This document shows, piece by piece, positions 5,231-39,111 of a stretch of 64,000 nt of DNA. Every line of letters begins with the position of its first letter. Position 1 is the stretch's first letter. The stretch lies in NCBI GenBank assembly GCA_050250895.1, contig JBFWNU010000001.1, positions 2,022,210 to 2,086,209 on the forward strand, in the 5' to 3' direction. The notes beneath the pieces are model-generated. The model was not told the origin of the DNA. It made no database searches and saw only the letters and a list, made by a program, of their open reading frames with translations. The stretch is from Vulcanimicrobiota bacterium. GTDB lineage: Bacteria > Vulcanimicrobiota > Xenobia > Xenobiales > JADMJV01. The translations under genes and the position numbers were made by a program.

Positions 5231-5328
5231 CTCGCCTGCAGTCTAGCAGTGCAAGCCCGGTCAGAAACTGGACAGCTCCCCGCGATGTTAACGGAAGGTT
5301 GCGAACTTTCGACCTCGAAAGCCGCGGG

Positions 5329-6372: not shown

Positions 6373-6375
6373 CTG

Positions 6376-7290: not shown

Positions 7291-7579
7291 GGTCGGTGGG
7301 CACGCTTTCGCTATCGTCGAGAAAGACCGGGGCGCCGTTGTTGAGATGGGAGTGTTCGCTGTGTCCCTGAGGCTCGAGGCGACCGCGCCAGCGGGCCGTC
7401 TCGGCCTCGGTCGGGCCGTTCTGCCAGACGCGTTCCAGGCCCGGCTCGACATGCAACTGGGGAGGGGAGAATACCTGTTGTTGAACGGGGACAATGGGGG
7501 CGGCCGGCCGGGGAGCGGTGCTCGGCGGGCCGGCACAACCGACCGTGGCCAGGATTAGCAACAGCCAAAATCTTCTCAC
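7283..7579 (-). CDS. small lipoprotein (MRRFWLLLILATVGCAGPPS...)
   Basis: Signal peptide with an LxGC-type lipobox. The gene is co-operonic with the downstream gene 6820..7290. Confidence 0.5.
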   Translation of the reverse strand: MRRFWLLLILATVGCAGPPSTAPRPAAPIVPVQQQVFSPPQLHVEPGLERVWQNGPTEAETARWRGRLEPQGHSEHSHLNNGAPVFLDDSESVPTDHE

Positions 7580-7609
7580 CTCTGCCTTATCGGCTCGTGG
7601 ACGAGAGTG

Positions 7610-8269: not shown

Positions 8270-9729
8270 TGGTAGACGCTCGAGGTCGCGTCCAGGACCT
8301 TTTCGGGATCGGGATGGGCCGTCCACTCGAGCACAGCCGCCGAGTCCTCGACGTAGTCGCGCCGGCGCATTCCGTTGAGCACCACGCTGACGCCCGCGGG
8401 GCTGCCGGCCAGCCACAGGGCTTTGCGCGACAGGGTCTCGTGGCGGCGCTGCTCGGGAATGCGCGGGTCGAGCGTCTGGCCCACCTTTTGGCTGTGCTCG
8501 TGACTCAAGCGGGTGGCCCGCTCTTCAATCGCGTTAGAGACTCCGCGGAAGGCGTCGGTGTAGTCCTTCTTCCAATCGAGCCATTGGTCCAGAAAGCCCG
8601 TGTGGGCGGCTGCTTCGACCGCCTCGAGCATGGCCGCCAGGTGGGGTCGGATCCGGATCTCTTCAAGGGTAAGCCAGTGGTCTAAACCCTGCAAATGATT
8701 GGGAGCGTCCTGGAGAAAGGGGGCCCAGCGAAACAGCTGATCCACGTTAGGTCCGGCCAGGTTGGGTAGAAACTCCTGGCGGAACCTCTCTTCCTGGCGT
8801 TCTAGCTCAGCCAGGGCGGCGGCCAGATCCTCTTCTTCCTCGTCGAGTTCGAAGTCGGCCAACCGAATCAGGTTGCCCGAGCCGTAGGCGTTGAGAGGGC
8901 GATTGACCATCACGCCGAGGTTGGCGGCCCGGGCGGTCTCGAGCACAGCGGGCACCCCTTCCCACTCGAGCAGGTTGAGGGGCAATTGGATCACGCCAAA
9001 ATGGTGGTCTTTGCCGCCGGCCCGCTCGGCCGCTTCGAGGAAGGCCTCGAGCTGGGTGCTTTCGGGGTGGTCAACCGGCATGACCAGGTTGTTCGACGAG
9101 ACCCCATAGCTGCCGATGCGACCGGCCTTGACCTGCGCTTCGAAATAGGCGAAGGCGCGCTCGACCCGGTCGTAAAACTCCTGGCGTGACTTCTCCAGGT
9201 CCGCCTGGCGCTCGGCCGCTTCCATCAAGAAATACTCGGGATTGTGCAGCAGGCAGACGTCGAGGGTGGCCAATCCAAGGCGCTCGAGCGAAAGCTGCAA
9301 CTGGTGCTCGAGAAACTCGGGGTGGATGCAATGCCACAGGCCCGGGGTCAGGCGCACCATCTCGGGGATGGGGTTTTCTTCGTTGTCGCGGGCCCAGGCA
9401 TACTCGAAGTTCTGGCCTTGCACATATCCGATCTTCGAGACGACGATCACCTGCTCGCGCTGCAAGCGGTCGTTTTCGACGAGACGCGCCAGGACCTCGC
9501 CGACGGCGCTCTCGCTCTCGCCATCGGTGTAGTTGGTCGAGGTGTCGATGAGATTCACGCCGCGATCGAGCGCAATCTCGATAGCCTCGCGATGGTTGGG
9601 GTTTTCGAAGTCGATGCGGTAACAACCGAAGCCCAGGCGCGAGCAGCCCAGCCCCGTCTTGCCCAGTCGGTTCGGTTGATGAGAAGTGGCTTCGGGCGTG
9701 GCCCGGCCGGCGATGATGGTCTTGGTCAT
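8266..9729 (-). CDS. aldo/keto reductase family oxidoreductase with a long C-terminal extension (~487 aa)
   Basis: N-terminus NRLGKTGLGCSRLGFGCY..., DTSTNYTDGESE and IVVSKIGY are typical of aldo/keto reductases. ATG start at 9729. The ORF-track upstream extension is not used. Confidence 0.85.
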   Translation of the reverse strand: MTKTIIAGRATPEATSHQPNRLGKTGLGCSRLGFGCYRIDFENPNHREAIEIALDRGVNLIDTSTNYTDGESESAVGEVLARLVENDRLQREQVIVVSKIGYVQGQNFEYAWARDNEENPIPEMVRLTPGLWHCIHPEFLEHQLQLSLERLGLATLDVCLLHNPEYFLMEAAERQADLEKSRQEFYDRVERAFAYFEAQVKAGRIGSYGVSSNNLVMPVDHPESTQLEAFLEAAERAGGKDHHFGVIQLPLNLLEWEGVPAVLETARAANLGVMVNRPLNAYGSGNLIRLADFELDEEEEDLAAALAELERQEERFRQEFLPNLAGPNVDQLFRWAPFLQDAPNHLQGLDHWLTLEEIRIRPHLAAMLEAVEAAAHTGFLDQWLDWKKDYTDAFRGVSNAIEERATRLSHEHSQKVGQTLDPRIPEQRRHETLSRKALWLAGSPAGVSVVLNGMRRRDYVEDSAAVLEWTAHPDPEKVLDATSSVYQ

Positions 9730-9782
9730 TGCCGCCACTTTTCTGAGCCAGCAGGCCCGGCCCCTGGCATAATTGCAGAAAA

Positions 9783-19076: not shown

Positions 19077-19745
19077 ATGCGTGGGTTTGTACTGGTCGGC
19101 CTGCTGGTCGTCCTGGGGGGATGCAAAGGTCCGAGCCAGGCCGTGATGACCTTCAAGGAGCGCGAGATGCTCCAGTGTAAGGGTCAGCTTCGCGAACTCG
19201 GCTCGCTTTTCGGAGGCGAGCAGGTGGAGCAGTTCCAGGCCGAGATGGCCGCCAACAGTCCCCGCGTTCGCTGTGCCACCGCCCGCCAGAACACCTACGC
19301 CGCCAGCCTCACCGCCTGCGTTGGCAAACCGGTAAGTGAAGCCGTGATCGTGTGCGGCGGCCACCACCATGCGGGGGTGGGCCTGGCGCCCGACTATCCC
19401 CGCTGGACGAAAGCGGATGGAGTGGCCGAGAGCCCCGAGAAAACGGTGGCGCTGCCCACCGGTTTCCCCCTGCCTTTACCTCAAGACGCCAAGCTGCTCG
19501 AGACCTACGCAACGACTCAGGAGGGCGATGTGGTGGTGGTCTTCGAGACCGGCCAGGACCTTCGTTTGCTCTGTGAACAGTATCACCAGATCCTCAACCC
19601 CGGGGTCGAAAATGTGGCCGCCGAACGCAGAGGCACCCTGGGTGTGTCCGGCACCTTTCAGGGATCGCCCTGCGGCGCGACCATGCAACTCGAGAATGGA
19701 CGGGTCGAGGTGCGCTACGCTCCGGCCTATCTGGCCGAGGAGTAG
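19077..19745 (+). CDS. lipoprotein (MRGFVLVGLLVVLGGC...), first gene of the pseudopilus-like operon
   Basis: Lipobox LGGC. Its stop overlaps the Shine-Dalgarno sequence and ATG of the following GspF-like gene (GAGGAGTAGAGATG). Confidence 0.6.
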   Translation: MRGFVLVGLLVVLGGCKGPSQAVMTFKEREMLQCKGQLRELGSLFGGEQVEQFQAEMAANSPRVRCATARQNTYAASLTACVGKPVSEAVIVCGGHHHAGVGLAPDYPRWTKADGVAESPEKTVALPTGFPLPLPQDAKLLETYATTQEGDVVVVFETGQDLRLLCEQYHQILNPGVENVAAERRGTLGVSGTFQGSPCGATMQLENGRVEVRYAPAYLAEE

Positions 19746-19747
19746 AG

Positions 19748-20788
19748 ATGAACCCATCGGCCGAATCGCTCTCGCTTTTCTTTCGGTCGATGGCTGTGAT
19801 GTTCACGGCCGGCATCTCGCTCGACCGGGCCCTCCATCTATTGGCCGACCAGAGCGAAGATGCAAAGATGGCCGAAGTCTCGCGCGATCTGGCCCAGCGG
19901 ATCAGCCAGGGCATTCCACTCTCCAAGGCCTTCTCGACCCATCAACAGGCTTTCTCGAACATCCAGGTGCGCTTGCTGACGGTGGGGGAGCGCACCGGCA
20001 ATGTCGACGCGATCCTCCACCGGTTGGCGCTTTATGAAGAAAAGCGTCGCGCCGTAACCATGAAAATTCGGGGAGCATTGACCTATCCGGCTTTCTTGAT
20101 GGCCATCGCGACCTTTATGCTGGTCGTCTTGCCGCCCTACATGTTCAAGGGTTTGTTTCAAATGATCGAGACGACGGCGGTCGACCCTCCCTTGATCACC
20201 GTGTTGGTCGTGGGTTTTTCGAAGTTCGTGCGCACCCCGTGGTTTTGGGGAATGGTGCTTGCTCTGGTAGGGATGGGAGTGACGGTAGGGCCGTCGCTAT
20301 GGCGTCAGCCCGGGTTTCGCCTCTGGTTGGCCGAACGCATCCTGGCTACACCGGTGCTGGGCCGCACCTATCAAAATCTGGGCACGGCCCGTTTCGCCCG
20401 AGCCATGGAGCTGCAACTGCAGGTTGGCGAGGGTCCCCTGGCCGGTTTCAGGCTGTCGGCAGAGGCCAGCGATAACCCCGTCTTGAGCCGCTCGATCGAA
20501 GGGGCCATCGAGGCCCTCAAGGGGGGCGAGGGCTTCACCGACAGCCTCAAGGCGACGGGGTTTTTCCCGAATTCGTTTCTGCAGGTCATGCGGGCCGGCG
20601 AAGAGTCGGCCGACTTGCCCGAAATGATGGGCCGCATGGCCACCATGTTCGAGGAAGAACTCGACCACTCCATCGATACCTTTACGGCTCTTTTGGAACC
20701 CCTGGTGATGTTGGTCATGGGAATCATCGTGGGGGTCGTAGTCATCGCTACCATGTTGCCCATGATGCAGTTGATCCAGAATCTTTAG
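19748..20788 (+). CDS. type II secretion / type IV pilus platform protein (GspF/PilC family, two T2SSF domains)
   Basis: Both T2SSF repeats are recognisable. Repeat one is LSKAFSTHQQAFSNIQVRLLTVGERTGNVDAILHRLALYEE...TYPAFLMAIA.... Repeat two is ...VMRAGEESADLPEMMGRMATMFEEELD.... TM helices are present. Confidence 0.8.
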   Translation: MNPSAESLSLFFRSMAVMFTAGISLDRALHLLADQSEDAKMAEVSRDLAQRISQGIPLSKAFSTHQQAFSNIQVRLLTVGERTGNVDAILHRLALYEEKRRAVTMKIRGALTYPAFLMAIATFMLVVLPPYMFKGLFQMIETTAVDPPLITVLVVGFSKFVRTPWFWGMVLALVGMGVTVGPSLWRQPGFRLWLAERILATPVLGRTYQNLGTARFARAMELQLQVGEGPLAGFRLSAEASDNPVLSRSIEGAIEALKGGEGFTDSLKATGFFPNSFLQVMRAGEESADLPEMMGRMATMFEEELDHSIDTFTALLEPLVMLVMGIIVGVVVIATMLPMMQLIQNL

Positions 20789-20796
20789 GAGGCTTA

Positions 20797-22044
20797 ATGC
20801 GAGACGACGCAACCATCAATATCGAGGGCGACGAGGCCGAGGGCCGCGAGTTCGTTCGCACTGGCTATGACCTGGTTCTCATCTCTTCCGACGGCGCTCA
20901 GAGTCGATTTCCCATCTGCTATTCCGAAGTGACCGTCGGAGGCGCCGGAGAAAAGCATAACGACATTGAACTCGAGGCCCCCGGAGTGGCCAATCGTCAA
21001 CTCAGTCTCAGCTACAAGACCGGCCGTCTCTTCTATACCAACCTGAATGTCGCCCTGCCCGTTGCCCTCAACGGGCAAGTCAGCACCTTTCGCGAACTGC
21101 AAGACCAGGACGAACTAGAGTTGGCGGGCTGCAAGCTGAGGGTGGTCGGCCTGATGGATCAACTGGCCTCGCTCGAGGGCTATAGCGATCCCTATCGCGG
21201 TCATCGTTGGGCCATCGGGCGCGAGCCCGTCACCATCGGCCGAGCCGGCAAACGCGACAATGTCGTCTCGCTCGAAGACCGGACCGTGTCGCGAACCCAG
21301 GCCACCATCCGGCTGCACGAGGGCACCTTCGTGCTCGAGCCCGAGACCACCAGTAGCCCTGTGCGGGTCAACGGTGACAAGGTCGAGCAATCGTCGATGC
21401 TCTCGGACGGGGACCTGATTCAGTTAGGGCAGCAGCTGCTGCGGTTTCGCACCGCCAAAGGGTCGAGCCGACCGCGCAATCTCGCCCCTCAGGAGGCCAC
21501 CATCCTTTTTTCGGATATCTGGAATTATTCGAGTCTGGCCGAGAGCCGGCCGCTCGAAGAGACGATCCACCAGATGAACGAATTCTATGGGGCCATGGGC
21601 AAGGTCATCCAGGCCGGCGGTGGCTTCTTGATGACCTTTCTCGGCGACGCGCTCATGGCCGTCTTTGGAGCCGAGAGTAAGGATGACCGCGATCCCCAGC
21701 GGGCCGTCGAGACCGCCGTGGCCATGCAGAAGCGACTGGAAGAACTCAATCAAGATTGGTCGAGTCGCGGCATGCCCACCATGCAAATCGGGGTGGGCAT
21801 CAATACCGGGGAGGTTATGGTCGGGGATGTGGGCTTCACCGGCAAGTTCGAGTTTGCCGCCATGGGCGATAACACCAACCTGGCCGCTCGCCTCGAGAAA
21901 TTGACCCGTGAGTTCAAAGCCCGCATTATCGTCAGCGGGTCGACTCACAAAGCCCTCACCGGCGGACCTACGCTGAGCTATCTGGGAACGACCAGGGTCA
22001 AAGGCCGAGAAACTCCGGTGGAACTTTACGGTGTCGAGTTGTAA
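20797..22044 (+). CDS. tandem FHA-domain protein fused to a class III adenylate/guanylate cyclase catalytic domain
   Basis: FHA signatures GR...NDIVL-like (...RWAIGREPVTIGRAGKRDNVVSLEDRTVSRTQATI...) appear twice. Cyclase motifs ATILFSDIWNYSSL, FLGDALMAVFG, GINTGEVMVGDVG, GDNTNLAARLE and VKGRETPVELY are present. A strong Shine-Dalgarno sequence, TAGGAGG, precedes the start. Confidence 0.85.
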   Translation: MRDDATINIEGDEAEGREFVRTGYDLVLISSDGAQSRFPICYSEVTVGGAGEKHNDIELEAPGVANRQLSLSYKTGRLFYTNLNVALPVALNGQVSTFRELQDQDELELAGCKLRVVGLMDQLASLEGYSDPYRGHRWAIGREPVTIGRAGKRDNVVSLEDRTVSRTQATIRLHEGTFVLEPETTSSPVRVNGDKVEQSSMLSDGDLIQLGQQLLRFRTAKGSSRPRNLAPQEATILFSDIWNYSSLAESRPLEETIHQMNEFYGAMGKVIQAGGGFLMTFLGDALMAVFGAESKDDRDPQRAVETAVAMQKRLEELNQDWSSRGMPTMQIGVGINTGEVMVGDVGFTGKFEFAAMGDNTNLAARLEKLTREFKARIIVSGSTHKALTGGPTLSYLGTTRVKGRETPVELYGVEL

Positions 22045-22066
22045 TTCTTCTGGTAGAATCTGGGAT

Positions 22067-23860
22067 ATGCGTACATCGAATCGGGGGATGTCGCTGGCCA
22101 CGACCTTGCTCCTTGGTGCTCTGGCACTGACGCTGGCCTTTACTTTCGCGGGGGTGGGCTTTACCCACCTCAACCTTTCCACCCGTCGAGCCAACGCCGA
22201 TAAAGCCCGCAATGCGGCCGAAGCGGTCATCGCCCAGGCTATCGAGCGGGTGCTGAGCAACAATGGCAACTATTTCAAGGCCCCCCCTTATCAGTTACTG
22301 ATTCAGCTCCAGGGCGCCGAGGGGCTTTTGACCTTCGACCCTGACGAGGCCGACGACCTCGACATTGCCGTTTCCACCTACAATCTCGGTGAGACGACCG
22401 AGAAGACCGGAGCGGGCGGCCGGATGGTTCCCAAGGATTCTATTCACTTCGTGGGCGTCGGTCGGGCCAATGGGGTCGAGCGGCGCATGGAAGCCATCTT
22501 GCAGGTTCCCACCTACCCTTACGCCCTGAGCACCAAGGGAAGCCTTTTCAGTCAGGGCGAACTGTGGGTGGCCGCCGCCGAGAGTCCGGATGACGTGGTG
22601 GCTGGCGGTATCGAAGCCAATTTCGACAATCTGTTGCCTTCTCATATCGCTGCCAATAGTACGGACCCGGACCACGCCATCAACCTGCCTTCGAGCAGCA
22701 AGAAGATTCGCATCAGCGGCGACGCCCGGGCCGCCGGAGGCATCGAGGCCAGTTCGCCCTTCGTTCAGATTTTGGGCGAGACCCGTCCCGACGCCGGAAC
22801 CATCGACATGCCGGCCTTCGAAATGCGCGATTTTGATCCAGACAATTTCGGCGATGTCCTCGGTTTGCCCGCTTCGTTGCCAGCCGACCGCAGGCTGGCT
22901 GTCGGCGGGTTGGTCAAATACAACGGAGATGTGGGCACCAACCCATCGAGTTCGGGTCCCGACGGCCTGGTCAACGAGCTGGTGTTACCCACCGACGGCT
23001 CCGGGGCTATCGTTTGGATCGACGGCGACCTCGAGGTGCAAGACGGCATCGTCGGCCAGGGGGCCATCTTCGTTACCGGCAACATCACCATTCACGGGGC
23101 CGGCCATTCGGATGTCACCGCGCCCAACGAGGCGGCCCTCATCGCCGGAGGCGACATCCATATCGACGGCGACTCGCAGCACACCGCCTTCTTCAAAGGC
23201 TTGCTGGTGAGCGGCGGTGAGATGAGCCTGCAAGGCGTTTCGGTTTTTGGGACGGTGGTGGTGGGCGCGACCCAGCTGAACGGAAACCCTACCGGTCCCG
23301 CCGACCCGAGCCTGAGCCTGGAAGATGCCACCGTGGTGAACGTGCCCGGCGAGGTCGAGTTTCCCTTCGAGATCCCCTTCGACATGGGCATGGGCACAGG
23401 CTTCACCACGGCCATGCGACCGGGAATCGAACTCGAGCGGTTCTTGGACAACAGCCCCGGCCCCGCCGACGAGCGCCCCTTCAACCCCAACCTGTTCACC
23501 GGCGACGGGTTCAGCGCCGCCAGCCCATTCGGCTTCAAGGTCGGACCGAACTTCGTCACCAAGGCCGGTCTGGTGGCTCAGATGAGTGGCTTCGCAGGCC
23601 CCATCGATTGGCCCCCTCACGGAACGGAATACGCCAATTGGACTGACGCCGCAGTAGCGCTGGGCTATCCGGACCTGGCCGCTTTCATCGATGGCGAGAT
23701 GGTCCCCTGGATCATCAACCACCAGCGTTCGATCATGCGCGAGATCAACACCAATTACCAGGCCGACTGGCCCAAGGAGCAGGGCGCCTTTAGCCTCGAC
23801 CCCAATCAGTTCTTGCAGCTGGAAACCAAGACCCGGGTCGTGCTCTGGAGGGACTTGTGA
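22067..23860 (+). CDS. PilX-like N-terminal domain protein with a large Gly-rich beta-helix-like C-terminal region. Putative pseudopilus tip or adhesin.
   Basis: N-terminus MRTSNRGMSLATTLLLGALALTLAFTFAGVGFTHLNLSTRRANADKARNAAEA fits the PilX_N pattern. Repetitive GxIxVxG-type beta-helix segments follow. The ATG at 22067 is chosen, whereas the ORF track starts at GTG 22031 inside the cyclase gene. Confidence 0.55.
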   Translation: MRTSNRGMSLATTLLLGALALTLAFTFAGVGFTHLNLSTRRANADKARNAAEAVIAQAIERVLSNNGNYFKAPPYQLLIQLQGAEGLLTFDPDEADDLDIAVSTYNLGETTEKTGAGGRMVPKDSIHFVGVGRANGVERRMEAILQVPTYPYALSTKGSLFSQGELWVAAAESPDDVVAGGIEANFDNLLPSHIAANSTDPDHAINLPSSSKKIRISGDARAAGGIEASSPFVQILGETRPDAGTIDMPAFEMRDFDPDNFGDVLGLPASLPADRRLAVGGLVKYNGDVGTNPSSSGPDGLVNELVLPTDGSGAIVWIDGDLEVQDGIVGQGAIFVTGNITIHGAGHSDVTAPNEAALIAGGDIHIDGDSQHTAFFKGLLVSGGEMSLQGVSVFGTVVVGATQLNGNPTGPADPSLSLEDATVVNVPGEVEFPFEIPFDMGMGTGFTTAMRPGIELERFLDNSPGPADERPFNPNLFTGDGFSAASPFGFKVGPNFVTKAGLVAQMSGFAGPIDWPPHGTEYANWTDAAVALGYPDLAAFIDGEMVPWIINHQRSIMREINTNYQADWPKEQGAFSLDPNQFLQLETKTRVVLWRDL

Positions 23861-24240
23861 AGCGAGCCTTTACCCTGGCCGAGACCATCTTTGCCACCTT
23901 CGTGTTGGCTCTGGTCATGATGACCCTGTTCAACATTTTTCCCTCGTCGGCCCTGGCGGTGAAGCGCGGCGAGATGCAGCTGCTGGCTGATTCGGTGGCC
24001 GAGGCTCACCTGGAACAACAACGAGCCATGGCTTTCGACAGTCTGGCCATCGCCGCTGAGAGCTACCTGCCCGACCAGGACCTGAAGGGTCTGCACTTCA
24101 AGCCCTCGCTGACCATTTCGGCGGTGCCGGGCTCTGACGTCGACCGGCTCAAGTCGGTTAACGTCAACGTTTACTGGTCTTTTCGCGAGCGCAACTACAA
24201 AGTCAGCCATGAGGCCTGGATTGTCAAAGTCGGCGAATAG
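23857..24240 (+). CDS. minor pseudopilin (prepilin-type N-terminal methylation domain, KRAFTLAETIFATFVLALVM)
   Basis: Class-III signal sequence with an FTLAE core but Ala rather than Gly at position -1. Overlaps the upstream gene by 4 nt. Confidence 0.6.
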   Translation: MKRAFTLAETIFATFVLALVMMTLFNIFPSSALAVKRGEMQLLADSVAEAHLEQQRAMAFDSLAIAAESYLPDQDLKGLHFKPSLTISAVPGSDVDRLKSVNVNVYWSFRERNYKVSHEAWIVKVGE

Positions 24241-24868
24241 AGCCTTCAGCCTGCTCGAGTTGTTGGTGGCTTCGGGCCTGCTCTTGCTGCTGGGAACCCT
24301 GTTTGTCTGGTTCTTGGTGCCGTCGGTGCGCTACTCCAGCCAGGGGGCGGCGCGCGTGGATCTCGAGCAGATGGTCACACTGGCGCTCGACCGAATCGGC
24401 AACGACCTGCAACACACGGTGGCCCGCGGGGTCTCGTATCACCCCTTGGCCGCGGCTGGCGCGAGCGACCCGGTGGTCTTGGCCATCGTGCCCCAGGCCG
24501 ATGTCGACGCCGACGGGCGACGCATCTGGTCGCAAGAAGTCGTCGTCTATTTTTGGGACCGTTCTGCCCACAAGCTTTATCGCCGGACCTGGCCGCCCGG
24601 TCCCCCGGCCAGCCTGAGCGTGCCCACGCCGTTACCTACCAACCGCCCGACCTCGTTCGGCGTGGCGGATTTGTTGGCACTCTGCGACCCCGCCGGAACT
24701 CGCTCGGTGGCCACGGATGTGACCCGATTTGATGTCTCGCACGCGGGGCCCGGTGCCTCGATTGTGCCTCCTCTAAGAATCGACCTGGAACTCTCGCGTC
24801 AGGTCGGCCCGAACCAGACCGAGACCTTCGCTAACACCAAAACCATCACTCTCCGGAACTCGCTATGA
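24209..24868 (+). CDS. minor pseudopilin (GspJ/PilW-like, NRAFSLLELLVASGLLLLL)
   Basis: Prepilin-type N-terminus, again with Ala at -1. Overlaps the upstream gene by 32 nt. Confidence 0.55.
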   Translation: MRPGLSKSANRAFSLLELLVASGLLLLLGTLFVWFLVPSVRYSSQGAARVDLEQMVTLALDRIGNDLQHTVARGVSYHPLAAAGASDPVVLAIVPQADVDADGRRIWSQEVVVYFWDRSAHKLYRRTWPPGPPASLSVPTPLPTNRPTSFGVADLLALCDPAGTRSVATDVTRFDVSHAGPGASIVPPLRIDLELSRQVGPNQTETFANTKTITLRNSL

Positions 24869-26340
24869 AAAAATGGTTGTTGTTGTTGACCTGGCTGACA
24901 CTGGCGCCGGCCTGGGGCGAGGATCACTACTACATCCATTTTCGCACCTATCCGCCGCGGGATGTGTTGGTCAAGCGCTCGAGCGGCACCGAGCAACCGG
25001 CCAGTGCCGAGCGGTATCAACTCACTCTCGAGAGCGGCGCTACGCCCGCCCTGAAATTGGTTTTCACCCATCCCGGCTTCCGCCAGCGAGAGGACTCTTT
25101 CTATGTGCAGGAGTTGCTCGAGCAGGGCAACCCGGTGGTGCAGGATGGCCAGACGATCTATACCTGGCCGCCCCCGGATCGAGCGCTCATCAGGCTGGAG
25201 CCCGAGAATGCCGTGCAAGCCCTGCGCTGGTGGGTCGTTTATCACCCCCTGGTTTTCGCCCTGGGCTTGCTGTTGAGCGGGGCCGTCACCCTCGGTGGAG
25301 CGCTCTATGTTCGCTCGAGTCGGCGAGACAAGCTTCGATTGGCGCAACTGGCTCAGGCCAGGGCCCAGGCCACCGCCAATGACCCGCTGGTCAGCGAGCA
25401 GGCAATGCTGGGATCCTATCGTATCGTGGATCGTCTGGGTGTCGGCGGGATGGCTGTCGTGTATAAGGCGGTGCCGGATTCTTCGCTCGATGCTCAGCAG
25501 GCCGTAGCCATCAAAGTCATCAAGCCCGAGTTTCTGGAAAATCGCGACTTTGTCGACAGGTTCCGGCGCGAGATCAAGCTCTCGACCAAATTGAATCATC
25601 CCAATATCGTACAGACCCTGGATTTTGGCGACCAGGACGGTTTGTTGTACGTCGTCATGGAACTGCTCGATGGTGGCGACCTCGACAATCAGATACCGCG
25701 TCAGGGTATGCCCTTCGACCAGGCCATGAACTTTTTTCGGCCCATCTTGCAAGGCTTACTCTACGCCCACGGGCGAGGCGTGGTCCATCGCGATCTCAAG
25801 CCCGACAACATCATGGTCACCTCTCGAGGAGAGGTCAAGATCGCCGATTTCGGTTTGGCCCGCGACCACGACGCCACCAAGCTTACCAAGACGGGCAGCG
25901 CCATGGGCACGCCAGCCTATATGCCCCCTGAACAACTTTCGGGGGTCGAGCCCCACCCCAGCGCCGACCAGTACTCCATTGGCATCGCCTTTTACGAGAT
26001 GCTGACCGGAAGACGCCCCTTCGAGGCCGACGATATCATGCAACTGCTGGTCAAGCAGATGTCGGAAGACCCGCCGCCGCCGACCCGTTTCAAAAAGTCT
26101 CTCAATCCGATCGTGGAGCAGATTTTATTGCGCATGCTCGAAAAGGACCCGGCCCGTCGCTTCGAGAGCTTGAGCCAGGTGCTCGAGGGCTTCGAGTGCG
26201 TGCTAGCGGGGCGCCCCTGGTCCATGCCTGCGGTCACGGTTCAGACCGAGACTCCCGGTCCCGGCTCTGGCAGCTTCAAGCTCCCGACCGCAAGTCAGCC
26301 GGTCGTGGATGAGGGCGATACGATCGGCTTCGGGGGATAA
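24865..26340 (+). CDS. receptor-type Hanks Ser/Thr protein kinase (N-terminal extracytoplasmic domain, one TM, C-terminal kinase)
   Basis: Kinase motifs GVGGMAVVYKA, AIKVIK, HRDLKPDNIM, DFGLA and GTPAYMPPE are present. Signal peptide plus a TM helix LVFALGLLLSGAVTLGGALYV. Overlaps the upstream pseudopilin gene by 4 nt. Confidence 0.9.
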   Translation: MKKWLLLLTWLTLAPAWGEDHYYIHFRTYPPRDVLVKRSSGTEQPASAERYQLTLESGATPALKLVFTHPGFRQREDSFYVQELLEQGNPVVQDGQTIYTWPPPDRALIRLEPENAVQALRWWVVYHPLVFALGLLLSGAVTLGGALYVRSSRRDKLRLAQLAQARAQATANDPLVSEQAMLGSYRIVDRLGVGGMAVVYKAVPDSSLDAQQAVAIKVIKPEFLENRDFVDRFRREIKLSTKLNHPNIVQTLDFGDQDGLLYVVMELLDGGDLDNQIPRQGMPFDQAMNFFRPILQGLLYAHGRGVVHRDLKPDNIMVTSRGEVKIADFGLARDHDATKLTKTGSAMGTPAYMPPEQLSGVEPHPSADQYSIGIAFYEMLTGRRPFEADDIMQLLVKQMSEDPPPPTRFKKSLNPIVEQILLRMLEKDPARRFESLSQVLEGFECVLAGRPWSMPAVTVQTETPGPGSGSFKLPTASQPVVDEGDTIGFGG

Positions 26341-26431
26341 AAAAAATGCCCCGGCGTTGTTGCCGAGGCGAAGGTCCAACCAAATGCTCATCTCACTGAA
26401 ATCAGGCTAACGGCCGACCGTCAAGACAGCG

Positions 26432-27541
26432 TTAAATGGCTCGCAGGCTGGTGTATCCGCAAGCTTCGCAGACGCGGGCCACCACCGGCTTCCAGTGTGA
26501 GCCCACCTTCACCCGCAGCGGCCCCGCCTCGGTCTCGAGGGGACAGTCCTGGAACAGGCGCCCCTGGCTACAGCTGGGACAAGTCGGAACCGCCGCCGCG
26601 GGCCGGGGCAGTTGGTCGAGCAGGTCCTGGCTGCGCGCCTCGAGCCACTCGAGCAGAGAGTCCCAGGCCTGATCGCGCACCAGGCCCGCCTGGGAAAGGT
26701 CTTTGTCTAACCCGGTCGTCCAGACGATCGTCCTGATGCCCGGGGCCACTTCCTCAGACGAGGCAAAGCTGACGCCATCGAGGATGACCGTCAGCGGGGG
26801 ACGCTGACCCGTCTCTTCATAGCTCAAGACGGCGGAATGCAGCTCGCTGGCGGGCAGCTCGTAGCGCCGGCCCTCGGGACAATCCACCAGGCCGATGCGA
26901 AACCGTCCCGGCACGATGGCATAGCCTCGACACGACCCGAGCTGTACGGCCAGGCGGGCCGGCCGGCCGTGGATGGTAAGCTCTTGCACCGGGGCCAAAC
27001 CGCAGCGCTCGGCGATGAGGTTGGACTCGATCAGCTGGCTGGCCGGGGTGTAGAGCCTCTTGAGCATGGGAGCAGCCGTCTTGAGGTGAAAACGAAAGCC
27101 ACCCCGGTCGGGGCAGCTCTCGACTCTGGGAGATTCCGCCGCCTGCAATCGGTGGCCGTGCGATTCCACGGTCAGGCTCAGCGGATCGAGCGCCAGGGCG
27201 CCATTGACGGCGATGGCCAGCTCGTGGAGTTGGCGGCTGGGCTGACTGGAAAACAGACTCCGTAACGCCTCACCCTCAAGGGGGCTGCAATTGCTGAATA
27301 GCTCGAAGTCGTCGGCGTCCTGGCGGACATCGATACTGGTGGCTCCTCCGGCGATTGCCGAAGCGACCAGGTTGAGGGCGAAATGGTGGGGAGTCTCGAG
27401 CTGATATTTGGCCAGCTTGAGCCGCGCTTTGGCCGGGTCGAGGGTGAATTCGCCGCTGGAATCGCGTTCGCCGGCGCCGCGCTCGGCTAATTCCTTTTCT
27501 AGTTCCGACACACGGGCAGGTTCGAGCCACCGTTTGCGCAC
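26432..27541 (-). CDS. paralog family member P1: hypothetical protein with a degenerate GHKL/Hsp90-like N-terminal segment and a C-terminal Cys4 zinc ribbon
   Basis: N-terminus ...GEFTLDPAKARLKLAKYQLETPHHFALNLVASAIAGGATSIDVRQD resembles the MutL/HtpG ELVENAxDAGATxIxV block but lacks the Glu/Asn residues. Zinc ribbon CPSCSQG...CEACGY. Paralogous to genes 36492..37616 and 45580..46683. Confidence 0.5.
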   Translation of the reverse strand: MRKRWLEPARVSELEKELAERGAGERDSSGEFTLDPAKARLKLAKYQLETPHHFALNLVASAIAGGATSIDVRQDADDFELFSNCSPLEGEALRSLFSSQPSRQLHELAIAVNGALALDPLSLTVESHGHRLQAAESPRVESCPDRGGFRFHLKTAAPMLKRLYTPASQLIESNLIAERCGLAPVQELTIHGRPARLAVQLGSCRGYAIVPGRFRIGLVDCPEGRRYELPASELHSAVLSYEETGQRPPLTVILDGVSFASSEEVAPGIRTIVWTTGLDKDLSQAGLVRDQAWDSLLEWLEARSQDLLDQLPRPAAAVPTCPSCSQGRLFQDCPLETEAGPLRVKVGSHWKPVVARVCEACGYTSLRAI

Positions 27542-27581
27542 CCTCTAGGAGACGGCCGGGAGCGTCCAGAAGGGGTGGTCG

Positions 27582-28685
27582 ATGTTTACGCCCGGAGTCG
27601 TCCTGCAAGATCGTTACCGCATCGACAAGCTGCTCGGCGAGGGCGGCATGAGCTATGTTTATCTGGCCCACCATCTGCAGCTCGATCGGCCGGTGGCGCT
27701 CAAGGTCGTCAAGCTGCTCTATGCTGACCCCAACGAGGCTCGCCAGCATGCCGAGCAACTGCAGGTCGAGGCTCGCATCATGGCTCGCCTCGACCACCCC
27801 AACCTGGCCCGAGTATTGGATATGTTCCTCGAGGGCAACATCCCGGTGCTGGTGATGGAGCTGATTACCGGCAGGGATCTCGAGCAGACGGCCATTCTGG
27901 CTCCCAAGCCCATCGCCCAACGGCGGGTGATGGCCTGGGCCCGGCAGCTGCTCGACGTGCTGGAATACCTTCACACCCAGGAGCCGCCGGTGATCGTGCG
28001 GGACCTCAAGCCGAGCAACGTGATGCTGGGTCACGACGGCCGCCTGCGCCTGATCGACTTCGGGTTGGCCAAAATGGCGTCGGGTCAGGGCGGCACCCGG
28101 GCCATCGTGCGGGGCATGGGCTCGGAAGGTTATGCACCGCTCGAGCAGTATGCCAAGGCCAGCACCGACGCGCGCTCGGATTTGTATGCCTTCGGAGCCA
28201 CCCTCTACTTCATGCTGACCGACGAGGTGCCCCCGCCGGCCTCGCTGCGGGTGGCTCACGGGGCGCCCGTCAAAGACCCGCGCATCATCAATGATTCGGT
28301 GACTCAAGACCTGTGGACCGCCATCGAGAAGCTGATGGCCCTCAATCCCGACGAGCGCCCGCCCACAGCCGCCGAGGCGCGCCGCTTGCTCGGCCTTGAC
28401 GAGGGTAAGCCCGACGACGGTCGCCGGCGCTGCGTTCAATGCTCAACCACTCTGACCACGGTCGTTCGGCGGGGGGTCGAGATCGACCGCTGCCCTGAGT
28501 GCGGCGGAGTCTGGCTGGATAAGGGAGAGCTCTCACGGTTGACCGAGACGGGCAAGCCCCAATCGCTGCCTCGACCCGCCGCCCTCGGCCCGGCCCCGAA
28601 GAAGAGGCCGAGGAAGGTCGACAGCGACGAACTCGAGACCAAGAGCCTGTGGCAGTCGCTGCTGGAGTTTCTGGACCTGGACTAA
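27582..28685 (+). CDS. Hanks-type Ser/Thr protein kinase with a C-terminal zf-TFIIB-like zinc ribbon. The catalytic loop reads VRDLKPSN instead of HRD.
   Basis: Kinase motifs GEGGMSYVYLA, ALKVVK, DLKPSN, DFGLAK and EGYAPLEQ are present. C-terminal ribbon CVQCSTTL...EIDRCPECGGVWLDKGEL matches the zf-TFIIB pattern. Confidence 0.85.
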   Translation: MFTPGVVLQDRYRIDKLLGEGGMSYVYLAHHLQLDRPVALKVVKLLYADPNEARQHAEQLQVEARIMARLDHPNLARVLDMFLEGNIPVLVMELITGRDLEQTAILAPKPIAQRRVMAWARQLLDVLEYLHTQEPPVIVRDLKPSNVMLGHDGRLRLIDFGLAKMASGQGGTRAIVRGMGSEGYAPLEQYAKASTDARSDLYAFGATLYFMLTDEVPPPASLRVAHGAPVKDPRIINDSVTQDLWTAIEKLMALNPDERPPTAAEARRLLGLDEGKPDDGRRRCVQCSTTLTTVVRRGVEIDRCPECGGVWLDKGELSRLTETGKPQSLPRPAALGPAPKKRPRKVDSDELETKSLWQSLLEFLDLD

Positions 28686-35707: not shown

Positions 35708-36610
35708 GTGATCGAACTCGAACGCTACGGCCCGGTCGAGGCCTTCCACCACGGGCGCTCGCCCTTCGGATTCTTGAAGCCGGTCATGTCGGTGCGCTGC
35801 TACCAGGTCGACGGTCTTCTGATCGACTCTGGGTTGAGCGTCTTCTCCTCGGCCGTCGGCCGCTGGGCCGTGGATAGGGGGGCGCGTCGCGCCCTCATCA
35901 CCCATCACCACGAGGACCACAGTGGCAACTCCAAAACCCTGCAGGGACACGGGCTCGAGGTGCTGGCCTCGCAACGAACCAACGACTGGGTGGAACGGGG
36001 CTTTTCGATCCGACTTTATCAACAGCTGGTGTGGGCGCCCGCCCCTCCCACCCGGCTGAGCCCGCTACCGCAGGTGGTCGAGACCGACCGCTATCGTTTC
36101 GAAGCTCTGCCCGCCCCCGGGCATTGCGACGATCAGATGGTCTTCTTCGAGGCCGACCAGGGGTGGCTCTTTTCGGGTGATGCCTTTCTGGCTCGCCGCA
36201 TCAAGTATTTTCGGGCCGACGAGGATTTCGCCGCCACCGTCGACTCGTTGCGCCGGTTGACTCGATTGGACTTTGGTGACCTCTTCTGCGCCCACCGTCC
36301 CGTGATGAAGACCGGCCAAGAGGCGCTGGCCGCCAAGCTGCAATTTCTCGAAGACCTCGAAGGCCGGGTGCGCGAGTTACATCAACAGGGCCTCGGTCCG
36401 CGAGCCATCACTCGCCAGCTGCTGGGGCCCGAGTCGTGGCTGTTCTATCTCTTTTCCTGGGGTGATCTATCCAAACTCAACCTGGTGCGCTCTATCCTTT
36501 TTGGACCGACGCTTCGAGCGGACTACCCGCCAGTCGGCGCCACTGCAGGGCGGCCTCTCGGCGAGAGCTACGAAAAAGCAAGCCAAAGTGACCTAGAACC
36601 TGGCCCGTGA
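35708..36610 (+). CDS. metallo-beta-lactamase fold hydrolase
   Basis: HxHxDH motif ITHHHEDHSGN, together with downstream His/Asp ligands (PGHCDD, SGDAF, CAHRPV). GTG start. Its 3' end overlaps the convergent gene by ~119 nt, so one of the two ends may be mis-set. Confidence 0.75.
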   Translation: MIELERYGPVEAFHHGRSPFGFLKPVMSVRCYQVDGLLIDSGLSVFSSAVGRWAVDRGARRALITHHHEDHSGNSKTLQGHGLEVLASQRTNDWVERGFSIRLYQQLVWAPAPPTRLSPLPQVVETDRYRFEALPAPGHCDDQMVFFEADQGWLFSGDAFLARRIKYFRADEDFAATVDSLRRLTRLDFGDLFCAHRPVMKTGQEALAAKLQFLEDLEGRVRELHQQGLGPRAITRQLLGPESWLFYLFSWGDLSKLNLVRSILFGPTLRADYPPVGATAGRPLGESYEKASQSDLEPGP

Positions 36611-37616
36611 GGAGCGCGAACCGGGCCCGCAACTGCTCGACCAGTTCGCCGAAGGCGGCATCTTCTCGCAGCGAGATTTGCGACAGATCGGTGGTCAGGT
36701 GGTCGGCCACCACCACCGCCGAGGCGCCCGGCGGGCCCAGGTCGACGGTCTTGGGCGGGCATAAATAACCGCGCCGGATGACGGTCAGGGTGCCTTTGCC
36801 CTCGAGCTGCAGCGGCAGGCTCAACCAGGCCCAACCACGCTCGGGCCCGACTCGGACCAGGGTGTCCATCGAGTCCAGGCCCAGCTCGCGGTGAACGGTC
36901 AGTTCGGGGTCGTAGCTGAGCCGGGCCCGCGTGGGCGGAGCTTCCAGGCTGCCCGGTTCGATCATCTGGCGACCCAGGCAGAATTGCTGGCTGGGGGTCA
37001 GGGGTTGGTTCACTTGGCGGCCATCGAGTTCGAGAGGAATCGGGCAGTGGACAAAGCCCCTGCTGACCATACGATGCTCGTCGGCCAATCCCGCCTGAGG
37101 GCGAAATCGATGCCAGAAGTCGGCCTTCACCGAGGGACGTCCCAGGTGAATTCGCAGGCCGGGGCGGTCGCGTACCGACAGGCGCATGGGACCGAACCGC
37201 TCGACCAGGCCCGACTCGAGCACCACCAGCCAATAGCGCGGTCCGTCACGAATCGAGCAGGCGGCCAGCGAATAGCCCTGTCCCAGGCTGCTGCGCAGAC
37301 CGATCACCAGGTCGCCGACGGGATCGTTGCCGGCCACCCTCAGGGCGGCCAGCTCCTGGGCCAGTTCCACTCCTTCGGGCAGAACGGCGCCGGGAGCGTC
37401 GATCATCAACTCGCCCGGGCGCAGCCGCAGCGAAAGAGAGTTGGCTCCCAGCCCTACCAGCCCCTGAAGCAGTTTGACGGCCACGAAACCCGGGCCGGGC
37501 AAGCGATACTGGTCGAGCACCTTCTGGGCCCGCTCGGCATCCAGGGCAAAACGCGAGCTGGAATCGACTTCTCCAACGGCCCGAAAGCTCTCTAGAAGCT
37601 CGTGCAGCTCGCTCAT
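36492..37616 (-). CDS. paralog family member P2 (degenerate GHKL-like N-terminus; CPIPLELDGRQ motif)
   Basis: ATG at 37616 (MSELHELLESFRAVGEVDSSSRFALDAERAQKVLDQYRLPGPGFVAVKLLQGLVGLGANSLSLRL...). The N-terminus and the CPIPxxLDGR block are shared with gene 45580..46683, and the N-terminus also with gene 26432..27541. Confidence 0.5.
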   Translation of the reverse strand: MSELHELLESFRAVGEVDSSSRFALDAERAQKVLDQYRLPGPGFVAVKLLQGLVGLGANSLSLRLRPGELMIDAPGAVLPEGVELAQELAALRVAGNDPVGDLVIGLRSSLGQGYSLAACSIRDGPRYWLVVLESGLVERFGPMRLSVRDRPGLRIHLGRPSVKADFWHRFRPQAGLADEHRMVSRGFVHCPIPLELDGRQVNQPLTPSQQFCLGRQMIEPGSLEAPPTRARLSYDPELTVHRELGLDSMDTLVRVGPERGWAWLSLPLQLEGKGTLTVIRRGYLCPPKTVDLGPPGASAVVVADHLTTDLSQISLREDAAFGELVEQLRARFALLTGQVLGHFGLLFRSSRREAALQWRRLAGSPLEASVQKG

Positions 37617-37674
37617 TCGGCCTGCTTCGCTCTGCCAACCAGGGTCTTCCCCCTCGGGGCCGAAAGCCGCGAAC

Positions 37675-39111
37675 ATGACCGAACATGCGCCCGCCGATTC
37701 CCACCCCCAAGAGGGCACCAGCCATGGAGCCTCCTGGCTGCTGCCAGCCATCATCGTGGGGGTTATCCTGGGCGGTCTGGTGGGGGCACAATGGCCTCAA
37801 TTCGCGATTCATTTCGAGTTTTTTGGCGAGCTCTTCCTCAATGCCCTGAAGATGCTAATCGTACCCCTGGTGGCCAGTTCCATGATCGCGGGCATCGCCA
37901 GTCTCGGCGATGTGCGCAAGCTGGGCAAGCCCGGACTGGTGACGGTCCTTCTTTACGCCGCCACCACAGCGCTGGCCGTTTTCATCGGCATGATCTTCGT
38001 CAATCTGCTAAAGCCCGGCGCGGGGGTCCAGGTGGAAGGGTCCAACAGGGCGCCCGCCACGCGCCTGGTCAAACAGATCGAAGGCGAGTGGGTGGTCTTC
38101 GACAAGGGCGATAACCTTTACACCCTCGACGGCGAGCCCGTGCGAGCGGTGGTGGCCCGTTTCAAAGACGAGCACTCGGCCCATGAAGCCGCCAAAGAAG
38201 GCGAGAAGTCGCTCTTCGGCGTGGTCGCCAAGGTGATGCGCATGATGGTCTCGGCCAACATCATCCAGTCGGCCGCCGCCACCGATATCCTGCCCCTGAT
38301 CTTCTTTTCGCTGTTGTTTGGCGGGGTGTTGACCACCCTGGGGCAAAAGGGCCAGATGGTGCTCGAGTTCTTCGCGGGCGTGAGCGAAGCCATGATGGCC
38401 ATGGTCAACCTCATCATGTATGTGGCGCCCCTTGGTATCTTCTCGCTGATTGCCGCTCGGCTGGGTAAAGCCGGCGGCGGTAGCGCCTTCGTCGAAGAGG
38501 TCACCAAGCTGGGCAACTATGCCCTGTGCGTCATCCTGGCCTTGCTCGTGCACTCTATCTTGCTGATCGGGCTCTATGCGCTGCTGGCCCGGCGTAGCCC
38601 GGTGGCCTTTTTGGCTAAGCTGGCCAAAGCTCTGACCACCGCTTTTTCCACCGCTTCTTCCTCGGCCACTTTGCCGCTGACCATGGAATGTTGTGAAGAG
38701 GCAGGAGTGTCGCCGGAAGCCACCAGTTTCGTGCTGCCCCTGGGAGCCACCGTGAATATGAATGGAACCGCTCTCTACGAGTCGGTGGCAGCCATCTTTA
38801 TCGCTCAGGCTTTCGGAATACCCCTGGGCATGGAAGGCCAGTTGATTGTCTTCGTTACGGCGACCCTGGCAGCTATCGGAGCGGCCGGCATTCCCGAGGC
38901 GGGTCTGGTGACGATGTTGATCGTGCTCAACGCCGCCAACCTGCCCACCGCAGGAGTGGGGCTGCTGCTCTCGATCGATTGGTTTCTGGACCGCTGCCGG
39001 ACCTCGGTCAACGTCTGGGGAGACGCGGTGGTGGCGGGCTGTGTCGACGAAATGGTGTTCTCCAAGCTCGACCTATCGGGCGAGATGCACCACGCCTCTA
39101 GCGTACGGTAG
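37675..39111 (+). CDS. dicarboxylate/amino acid:cation symporter (DAACS family; GltP/DctA-like)
   Basis: Polytopic protein with DAACS signatures: ...LKMLIVPLVASSMIAGIASLG..., ...FSTASSSATLPLTMECCEE..., ...NMNGTALYESVAAIFIAQAFG..., ...GIPEAGLVTMLIVL.... ATG start at 37675. Confidence 0.85.
   Translation: MTEHAPADSHPQEGTSHGASWLLPAIIVGVILGGLVGAQWPQFAIHFEFFGELFLNALKMLIVPLVASSMIAGIASLGDVRKLGKPGLVTVLLYAATTALAVFIGMIFVNLLKPGAGVQVEGSNRAPATRLVKQIEGEWVVFDKGDNLYTLDGEPVRAVVARFKDEHSAHEAAKEGEKSLFGVVAKVMRMMVSANIIQSAAATDILPLIFFSLLFGGVLTTLGQKGQMVLEFFAGVSEAMMAMVNLIMYVAPLGIFSLIAARLGKAGGGSAFVEEVTKLGNYALCVILALLVHSILLIGLYALLARRSPVAFLAKLAKALTTAFSTASSSATLPLTMECCEEAGVSPEATSFVLPLGATVNMNGTALYESVAAIFIAQAFGIPLGMEGQLIVFVTATLAAIGAAGIPEAGLVTMLIVLNAANLPTAGVGLLLSIDWFLDRCRTSVNVWGDAVVAGCVDEMVFSKLDLSGEMHHASSVR

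Follow-up and report, generated by a model that had tools for sequence, protein, structure and literature searches.

A conserved cassette of type IV filament minor pilins, a receptor-type Ser/Thr kinase and a tandem-FHA nucleotidyl cyclase in an uncultured member of the Eremiobacterota

The DNA considered here (the window) is a stretch of 64,000 nt from contig JBFWNU010000001.1 of assembly GCA_050250895.1 (positions 2,022,210 to 2,086,209), which belongs to an uncultured member of the Eremiobacterota (phylum name at NCBI, Vulcanimicrobiota). Within it, seven co-directional open reading frames (ORFs) occupy the + strand at 19074-19745, 19748-20788, 20797-22044, 22031/22067/22088-23860, 23857-24240, 24209-24868 and 24865-26340. 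They encode, in this order, a lipoprotein, an inner-membrane platform protein, a tandem-FHA class III nucleotidyl cyclase, a large minor pilin (the "big" pilin), two small minor prepilins (ppI and ppJ) and a receptor-type kinase. This block had been picked out in a first-pass annotation made from the letters alone, and its ORFs and their common strand are confirmed. The G+C content of the operon is 0.60-0.62, slightly below the rest of the window (range 60-66%). The junctions between the ORFs measure, in order, +2, +8, -14/+22/+43 (by the start chosen for the big-pilin gene), -4, -32 and -4 nt; four of the six are tight, with gaps of 2 and 8 nt and two overlaps of 4 nt, and the ppI and ppJ genes share 32 nt. 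For the big-pilin gene we prefer, among the three candidate starts (22031, 22067 and 22088), the ATG at 22067, since the family leader MxxRG/xSLATTLL (a slash separates positions -1 and +1) fits there; with this predicted start the gap is 22 nt.

The big pilin (22067-23860, + strand, ~597 aa) is a minor pilin of the PilX/GspK/ComZ class. Its leader, MRTSNRG/MSLATT, resembles a class III signal peptide without the glutamate at +5 (Glu5), and the family consensus reads RGxSLATxL. An AlphaFold2 model (pLDDT 90, pTM 0.79) predicts a 60-residue α1 helix, a pilin sheet, a β-solenoid at about residues 190-450 and a C-terminal α/β part. GspK and XcpX are among the matches to the fold, and the solenoid is like those of ComZ, tapirins and ice-binding proteins; the protein has the features of a large pilin of the GspK/PilX/ComZ type. 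For the modelled pilins of the window, the strongest pilin-specific structural matches are ComZ and TTHA1219, which are competence/type IV pilus (T4P) pilins of Thermus. The earlier description of a PilX_N protein with a β-helical C-terminus was right as to the PilX class and the β-solenoid. However, the solenoid is inserted and is followed by the α/β part, the big pilin has no Pfam match of its own, and PilX_N appears in only 2 of 69 family members examined; Pfam also recognizes DUF7305 in 10 of the 69 and the β-solenoids FapA and bactofilin in 6 each. Searching 1.84 billion proteins with a profile of three orthologues yields 949 clusters at 50% identity, of which 509 score below 1e-30. Conservation in this family covers the first ~420 residues, the C-terminus varies, and all members named in databases carry the label "hypothetical protein".

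The two small prepilins have the usual N-terminal motif followed by a hydrophobic helix. ppI (23857-24240, + strand, 127 aa) is of GspI/PilV size and begins KRA/FTLAE; ppJ (24209-24868, + strand, 219 aa) is of the GspJ/PilW class and begins NRA/FSLLE. No further prepilin-type N-terminus is present in the window. ppI matches nothing in Pfam, and its matches in NCBIfam are weak and confined to the N-terminal helix (GspI 0.07, ComGE 0.004, and ComGD). ppJ is annotated at NCBI as hypothetical protein AB7S38_10730; a structure model built from a six-sequence alignment predicts a GspJ/PilW-type fold, with EpsJ, XcpW and GspJ among its matches. Profile searches of the PDB with the two small pilins gave insignificant matches to the N-terminal helix only. 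Each member of the trio carries a class III signal peptide, that is, a basic leader, Gly or Ala at -1 and, save in the GspK/PilX-type member, Glu5. Among orthologues of the small prepilins, position -1 is mostly Gly and less often Ala, and +5 is always Glu; both window prepilins carry Ala at -1 (23863-23868 and 24239-24244), as does the smaller prepilin of one related locus (L006). The prepilin nature of these proteins, first described as a PilX-like protein and two minor pseudopilins, is thus upheld. However, a more fitting description of the three is a type IV filament's priming/tip set of the GspK/I/J type (PilX/V/W, ComZ-type), which is a known kind of cassette.

The platform protein (19748-20788, + strand, 346 aa) belongs to the GspF/PilC family, as first called, and consists of two T2SSF domains (Pfam, E 1.6e-49) behind a short N-terminus. 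Against the NCBIfam GspF model TIGR02120 it scores 250 bits over model positions 61-400, leaving the first ~60 positions uncovered; since the equivalog cut-off of this model is 424 bits, the score indicates family-level T2SSF membership only. The PilC model gives 181 bits, and both PilC and ComGB score under GspF. Platform orthologues in related cassettes are 45-56% identical.

The gene at 20797-22044 (+ strand) encodes a soluble class III nucleotidyl cyclase in which a degenerate FHA domain (FHA1, residues ~25-118) and a canonical one (FHA2, 145-211) precede the cyclase domain (232-406). Pfam detects FHA (1.8e-16) and Guanylate_cyc (2e-20), and the second FHA domain is recovered with hhalign: profiles from 24 family members align FHA1 (residues 18-122) with FHA2 (126-222) at a probability of 99.2% (E 6e-20), so the earlier call of a tandem-FHA cyclase is right. 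FHA1 no longer carries the GR-motif Arg or the SR-motif Ser. FHA2 retains G148, R149, S165 and R166, which are invariant among the 24 members, and N192, present in at least 90%. Within the cyclase domain the metal-binding residues D240 and D284 are invariant, and N361 and R365 occur in at least 90% of the members. At the positions that specify the nucleotide, the canonical pair is Lys with Asp/Thr for ATP or Glu with Cys/Gly for GTP; here these positions hold Thr280 (21634-21636) and Ala354 (21856-21858), each in at least 90% of the 24 members, a pair that fits neither the adenylyl nor the guanylyl signature. Alignment with the solved structures of Cya2 (2W01, Glu/Gly) and OaPAC (Lys/Thr) confirms the register, and the closest solved relative is Cya2 (3.5e-27), a guanylyl cyclase. 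Because Thr280 and Ala354 replace the canonical pair, the product is not assignable as cyclic AMP (cAMP), and the adenylate cyclase and cAMP output that had been proposed are not established. About 115 full-length homologues of the protein were found. Its FHA domain also matches the TagH/Fha model of type VI secretion (TIGR03354, 6.5e-10) and the cytoplasmic domain of YscD (3.8e-11). A Pycsar/CBASS or kinase-based defence system was considered and rejected: PADLOC returned only generic PycC and kinase domain matches with no effector model, and the PycC score equals the Pfam cyclase score.

The last gene of the block (24865-26340, + strand) encodes a receptor-type Hanks Ser/Thr kinase of 491 aa. 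As the first-pass annotation had recognized, it has the make-up of a receptor, with a signal peptide, an extracytoplasmic module of ~105 aa, a transmembrane (TM) segment and a C-terminal kinase domain (Pkinase, 1.3e-54). The motifs HRD(L/I)KPxN and DFG and a T-x-x-T in the activation loop are conserved in this kinase and its orthologues (seven compared). Together with the Arg, Ser and Asn of FHA2 that would bind phosphothreonine (pThr), these residues suggest a competent kinase/FHA pair. A phosphorylated juxtamembrane segment had been put forward as the FHA target; no invariant Thr is found there among the seven orthologues, and the conserved Thr lies instead in the activation loop. The ectodomain is present once or twice per orthologue. 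A PEGA-like ectodomain was rejected, as five kinase ectodomains gave no Pfam match. Neither the window scans nor the Pfam lists of related loci contain a PP2C phosphatase.

Related loci (referred to by L numbers) were gathered via big-pilin and FHA-cyclase orthologues, and a metagenome scan anchored on the FHA-linker segment gave at least 12 loci. Besides the window, 12 loci from other assemblies (L002, L003, L004, L006, L084, L085, L096, L097, L102 with two cassettes, L103 and L104) link the genes for the big pilin, ppI, ppJ and the kinase, and truncated cassettes occur in L007 and L086. Across the linked loci the big pilin is 24-46% identical to that of the window; within the near clade the big pilin shares 28-46%, the kinase 37-42% and the cyclase 55-65% of residues with its window counterpart. 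A T2SSF gene lies inside the available flank in 10 cassettes, and stop/start overlaps with the pilin genes are present in the window, L002, L003, L096 and L104. The topology of signal peptide, ectodomain, TM segment and kinase domain is common to all cassette kinases, including the distant ones. The conserved core is the big pilin, ppI, ppJ and the receptor kinase; a platform protein is usual and a tandem-FHA reader is frequent. Thus the linkage of pilus genes with kinase and FHA genes, for which a survey of gene order had been asked, recurs over divergent loci and in several orders.

At least five gene orders are seen among the cassettes. L002, L003, L006 (with no GspF upstream) and the truncated L007 are colinear with the window. 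In L004, L084, L085 and L086 a GspF gene on the + strand is followed by the kinase, ppJ, ppI and big-pilin genes, all on the - strand, then by an ORF for a secreted protein and the FHA-cyclase gene on the + strand. L096 has the order FHA-cyclase, big pilin, ppI, ppJ, kinase, followed on the opposite strand by a homologue of a 369-aa protein of the window (see below), GspF and a 153-aa ORF. L097 has the order kinase, FHA-cyclase, ppI, ppJ, kinase, big pilin, with no GspF. Three distant big-pilin relatives (L102, L103 and L104; 24-29% identity) also sit in cassettes. L104 contains only the big pilin, ppI, ppJ and the kinase, and L103 contains two kinases, T2SSF, ppI, the big pilin and ppJ. Behind T2SSF in L103 comes an ORF of 322 aa whose sequence is kinase-like, although Pfam does not match it. 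In L103 an ATPase of the PilB/GspE type (MshEN-T2SSE, 15485-17134) lies 3.3 kb downstream, which makes this the sole related locus with a motor. At L102 (3212-16037) two complete cassettes stand back to back and divergent. The platform of one is a GAF::T2SSF fusion; in the other, the cyclase is replaced by a tandem-FHA reader fused to a winged helix-turn-helix (wHTH) and a BTAD domain, the domain set of EmbR, which is 33% identical to the FHA module of the window cyclase over residues 4-236. L104, L103 and cassette A of L102 lack an FHA reader.

Several observations accompany this survey. In L002, a BrnT toxin gene and two small ORFs of no known family lie on the opposite strand between GspF and the FHA-cyclase (7782-8720); the two small ORFs, part of the same insertion, may include the antitoxin BrnA. 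A 174-aa cNMP_binding protein is encoded 3.4 kb upstream of the L097 cassette (6123-6647), and in L098, where the FHA-cyclase belongs to no cassette, an HD_5 (HD-GYP-like) protein is encoded divergently from it (8799-9764); these two are possible receptor and degrading partners, respectively, for the nucleotide. L010 holds an FHA-cyclase of the same clade as those of L008 and L101, with pilin-like genes upstream: at 4230-7744, beside a 369-aa homologue and the cyclase paralogue, are encoded a 799-aa protein with a PilX-like N-terminus and prepilins with the motifs EKGYTLAE and RRGISLAE. L010 was not accepted as a paralogous cassette, since the 799-aa protein matches the hidden Markov model (HMM) of the big pilin at E 4e-6 through its N-terminus only. 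Some records of metagenome-assembled genomes (L004, L005, L012, P0013 and P0278) are labelled "uncultured Burkholderiales" or "Candidatus Nitrosotenuis sp.", despite an Eremiobacterota-type cassette; these labels probably reflect mistakes of binning or taxonomy in public records.

As the first-pass annotation noted, the operon contains no GspE/PilB ATPase, secretin or major pilin, and the same is true of the whole 64-kb window. A Walker A motif of the GspE/PilB type (G.TGSGK[ST]) occurs nowhere in it, Pfam scans of its large ORFs reveal no T2SSE, secretin, PilMNO or peptidase A24, and Pfam and motif scans reveal no GspC, D, E, G, L or M. The other large ORFs are metabolic, transport and regulatory genes by Pfam. 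Consequently, the block does not represent the end of an ordinary type II secretion system (T2SS) or T4P locus: machine genes are missing from the window, and the flanking genes are unrelated. Among the cassette loci, a major pilin is found within 10 kb of none, and an ATPase of none except L103. The phylum has a single cultured member, a diderm that makes type IV pili and has pilMDTC (PMC9758169). Since this isolate makes type IV pili, the remaining parts of the filament machine are probably encoded elsewhere in the genome rather than absent.

We judge it somewhat probable that the block serves a type IV filament (of the T4P/T2SS superfamily) as a priming/tip cassette that carries its own signalling relay. 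The three pilins would form a GspK-I-J-like heterotrimer, which would nucleate on the cassette's own platform paralogue and cap the filament. The major pilin, PilB/GspE ATPase, alignment complex, secretin and prepilin peptidase would be supplied from elsewhere, with the shared motor extending the filament. The kinase ectodomain would sense a periplasmic or membrane cue tied to the tip set, which may be the pool of unassembled minor pilins, engagement of the tip, or an envelope or surface ligand. The kinase may then autophosphorylate on the conserved Thr of the activation loop, allowing FHA2 of the cyclase to dock on the pThr, and the cyclase homodimer would alter its output of cyclic nucleotide. 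The relay most likely passes information outward from the envelope, to gene expression or to pools of second messengers, and does not act solely to license assembly, because the output of the L102 reader is an EmbR-like DNA-binding module. The motor near the L103 cassette shows that this family belongs among T2SSE-driven machines.

Several points weigh against this proposal. No PilB/GspE ATPase, major pilin, secretin or prepilin peptidase lies within the visible 64 kb of the genome. A fourth pilin, of the GspH/FimU/FimT type, is missing; the window contains two Glu5 prepilin motifs, and so does each related cassette. A platform for each cassette would be unusual for organisms with several minor-pilin sets, and a self-contained device would fit this arrangement equally well. 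The cyclase family is not dedicated to pili, as many of its members are unlinked to pilins; those not beside pilin genes are in L098, L099 (next to a Che cluster), L100, the paralogue clade L008/L090, L089, L091 and L101. Apart from the distant cNMP_binding gene of L097, neither a PP2C nor a cyclic-nucleotide receptor is linked to the cassettes. The structural matches of the pilins rest on predicted models, and we infer the protein-protein contacts, indeed all interactions, as well as the direction from apparatus to kinase to cyclase.

The flow of information might also be the reverse. The kinase and FHA-cyclase could control assembly, as PpkA and Fha1 do in type VI secretion, with phosphorylation recruiting the cyclase to the platform or tip; the recruited cyclase would license or localize assembly, and its activity would be local or secondary. 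The position of the cyclase gene between the platform and pilin genes and the FHA matches to TagH/Fha and YscD fit such a role, and the GAF domain on one related platform could receive a nucleotide signal. However, the TagH/Fha and YscD matches amount to generic FHA similarity, the EmbR-like reader of L102 is a transcriptional output and not an assembly factor, no phosphatase partner is linked, and the FHA reader is dispensable for assembly, as three cassettes are without any. We regard both this control of assembly and the recruitment and licensing steps as doubtful, if the best of the alternatives.

A little more doubtful still is that the cassette makes no long filament at all. The platform and a three-pilin stub of a pseudopilus would then form a self-contained envelope sensor that gates the receptor kinase and a swappable FHA reader. 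The stub would be the mechanical or ligand-sensing element, and a genome could hold several such units, analogous to two-component systems; we hold this further detail to be no more probable than the sensor itself. The scarcity of major pilins and ATPases near the cassettes would be expected of such a device, as would the fact that most cassettes have their own T2SSF paralogue and all their own kinase, with two complete cassettes at L102. The reader's output is a cyclase in some cassettes and an EmbR-like module in another, an exchangeability also known from sensory pathways, and one platform paralogue bears an N-terminal GAF. However, platform proteins are known to work only with a T2SSE ATPase, and L103 has one nearby. 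The large adhesin-like β-solenoid of the big pilin suggests exposure at a filament tip. Known minor-pilin clusters, moreover, are often unlinked from the machine; we take fimU-pilVWXY1E of Pseudomonas aeruginosa and the clusters of Myxococcus xanthus to be examples.

It is unlikely that the platform and trio belong to a T2SS-like pseudopilus, that is, to a secretion machine and not a surface pilus. GspF is the best NCBIfam platform model, ahead of PilC, and the sizes of the trio follow GspK/I/J, as do the folds of the two members that were modelled. However, the GspF score is far under the equivalog cut-off, the window is without the other Gsp components sought, T2SS genes are normally clustered, and the strongest pilin-specific structural matches are to Thermus proteins. 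A chance or lineage-specific juxtaposition of abundant kinase and cyclase genes with pilin genes is very unlikely: several other Ser/Thr kinases do lie near these loci, and many FHA-cyclase paralogues are not pilin-linked, but the same receptor-kinase subfamily occurs within the cassette at 12 loci besides the window, despite at least five rearrangements and big-pilin identities as low as 24-28%, and stop/start overlaps with the pilin genes are seen in the window and several of these loci.

The proposed priming/tip cassette can be compared with several known systems. The pilA1-pilA2-pilA3-comZ(-pilA4) cluster of Thermus thermophilus presumably includes, in addition, the major pilin PilA4 and a further small pilin. 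Like the cassette, it places a large pilin with an inserted β-solenoid beside small minor pilins (ComZ, 6QVI; TTHA1219, 5G23). However, the sequence identity is ~15%, and the Thermus cluster has no gene for a platform, kinase, FHA protein or cyclase. ComZ is described as a tip-associated pilin (PMC6561018). The GspK-GspI-GspJ trio and GspF of T2SSs (3CI0, 2RET, 5VTM) likewise include one large pilin without Glu5 and two smaller ones, of ~125 and ~200 aa; GspK, XcpX, EpsJ, XcpW and GspJ are among the structural matches of the window pilins, and GspF is the best platform model. Unlike these systems, the window has no GspH, G, E, D, C, L or M nearby, its platform falls under the GspF equivalog cut-off, and its big pilin bears a β-solenoid where GspK has an α-domain.

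In cyanobacterial PilX proteins (PilX_EPS/HpsA and PilX_Com), an ice-binding-protein-like β-solenoid interrupts the pilin and is proposed to plug the tip (bioRxiv 10.64898/2026.02.12.705559). In cyanobacteria including Synechocystis, the tip complex is reported to be linked to surface sensing through cAMP, and several minor-pilin sets are present per genome (same source). These sets share with the window the β-solenoid PilX-type pilin and the connection between tip and cyclic nucleotide. However, the cyanobacterial cyclase Cya1 and kinases act in trans, the sets include FimT and PilW/PilV, and one PilC is common to them, whereas here the cyclase, the kinase and a platform paralogue are encoded inside the cassette. 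The fimU-pilVWXY1E set of P. aeruginosa is tied to FimS-AlgR, PilS-PilR and Pil-Chp/CyaB/cAMP-Vfr. There, too, the expression or state of a tip set is tied to dedicated sensors, a class III cyclase and cAMP, but the sensors are histidine kinases and a chemosensory system, and no FHA-cyclase fusion, platform paralogue in cis or receptor Hanks kinase in the operon is known there. A link between Stk1 and AlgR is the subject of one paper (PMC11197903). The proposed relay would be analogous to PilS-PilR, FimS-AlgR and Pil-Chp/CyaB, but with eukaryote-like kinase and FHA parts encoded in cis.

PpkA-PppA-Fha1 of type VI secretion and PknH-EmbR of Mycobacterium tuberculosis each pair a membrane Hanks kinase that has an extracytoplasmic sensor with an FHA reader. 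The cassette resembles them in a pairing of kinase and FHA protein that would control an envelope machine or report on it, and the L102 reader has the FHA, wHTH and BTAD domains of EmbR. It differs from them in the machine concerned, in the lack of a PP2C, in the reversed topology of the kinase (N-terminal ectodomain and C-terminal kinase domain) and in the fusion of the reader to a cyclase. CyaD of Anabaena has an FHA domain N-terminal to a class III cyclase domain; the window family differs from it in the tandem FHA domains, the first of them degenerate, in the Thr/Ala specificity residues and in the neighbourhood of pilin and platform genes. Minor-pilin tip cassettes, ComZ/PilX β-solenoid pilins, FHA-cyclases and kinase/FHA pairs are already known singly. 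What appears to be new is a conserved combination in cis, in which a pilin set is joined to a platform paralogue and a receptor-kinase subfamily, both of them dedicated, and to a modular tandem-FHA reader. In agreement with the first-pass annotation, which did not recognize a described system, this combination was not found in the searchable literature, a body that takes in few of the subscription journals.

Other genes and features surround this core. The lipoprotein (19074-19745, + strand), recognized by reading an LGGC lipobox, is encoded 2 nt before the platform gene and is probably co-transcribed with the cassette. It had been listed as a member of the operon, and the lipobox stands; however, it has no Pfam or NCBIfam family match and no homologue in any related locus, which places it outside the conserved set. 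A further gene on the + strand (18244-19032), 41 nt upstream of the lipoprotein ORF, is possibly the first of the transcription unit. Its 262-aa product combines a C2H2-like zinc finger in the N-terminal part (CSCGKSF...HRAMGNC) with a single TM segment and a small domain at the C-terminus, and shows no family match in Pfam or NCBIfam and no homologue in the related loci. At the other end, the receptor-kinase gene and the convergent gene for the 369-aa protein are separated by a GC-rich hairpin (26348-26369; 8 pairs, 7 of them GC, with a T-run on the minus strand), which is likely a terminator that marks the 3' end of the operon, as judged from its match to the consensus only.

The 369-aa protein (26432-27541, - strand) is encoded convergently with the receptor kinase and has an unassigned fold and a C-terminal CxxC...CxxC ribbon. 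Its earlier description as degenerate GHKL-like finds no backing: neither the protein nor a five-member family profile matches anything in Pfam, NCBIfam or the sequences of the PDB, and PADLOC reports nothing for the protein. The family shares an N-terminal region, DSSGxFTLDPxKAL..LAxFQL, and the zinc ribbon is confined to the window copy at 26432-27541. By tblastn and HMM searches, family members are directly divergent from FHA-cyclase paralogues in L008/L090, L010, L089, L091 and L101, and one adjoins the cassette GspF in L096 (coordinates: L008, 8613-9833; L010, 7803-9191; L096, 17686-19668; L101, 8699-9943). Because the family recurs beside FHA-cyclases and the L096 GspF, the 369-aa protein is listed as a probable accessory of the cassette. 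However, the window contains three copies in all, the others at about 36492-37796 (-) and 45580-46827 (-), and these two further paralogues temper the weight of the adjacency to cyclases. The next gene (27582-28685, + strand) encodes a cytoplasmic Ser/Thr kinase with a C-terminal zinc ribbon; both domains of the earlier call were found (Pkinase 5.4e-37, Zn_ribbon_TFIIB 1.3e-14). A 43%-identical homologue directly follows an FHA-cyclase of 40% identity in L011, and none is present in the other cassettes; this kinase is a possible accessory whose association is weak.

Farther out, the upstream neighbours are a divergent M23 peptidase gene directly before the 262-aa gene, an aldehyde dehydrogenase and a C11 peptidase, and the downstream flank holds a polyamine-synthase-like gene (all by Pfam). 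In the upstream region, at 9983-13423, a protein with a Gln_deamidase_2 domain (559 aa) and the clostripain-family C11 peptidase (564 aa) are encoded divergently and are seemingly unrelated to the cassette.

How type IV pili report surface contact or the state of their assembly to second messengers is an open question in the field, and the parts studied in model organisms are dispersed and work in trans. With candidate partners joined in a conserved operon, the question comes down to a few explicitly named proteins, whose contacts can be probed pair by pair. The cassette also defines a large family (the 949 clusters above) of ComZ/PilX-like β-solenoid pilins from uncultured bacteria, a subfamily of receptor kinases that is dedicated to those pilins, and a clade of class III cyclases with non-canonical Thr/Ala specificity residues. 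If the cassette were instead a self-contained sensor, it would mean that parts of type IV filaments have been re-used as signal-transduction hardware, in an unrecognized class of envelope sensors.

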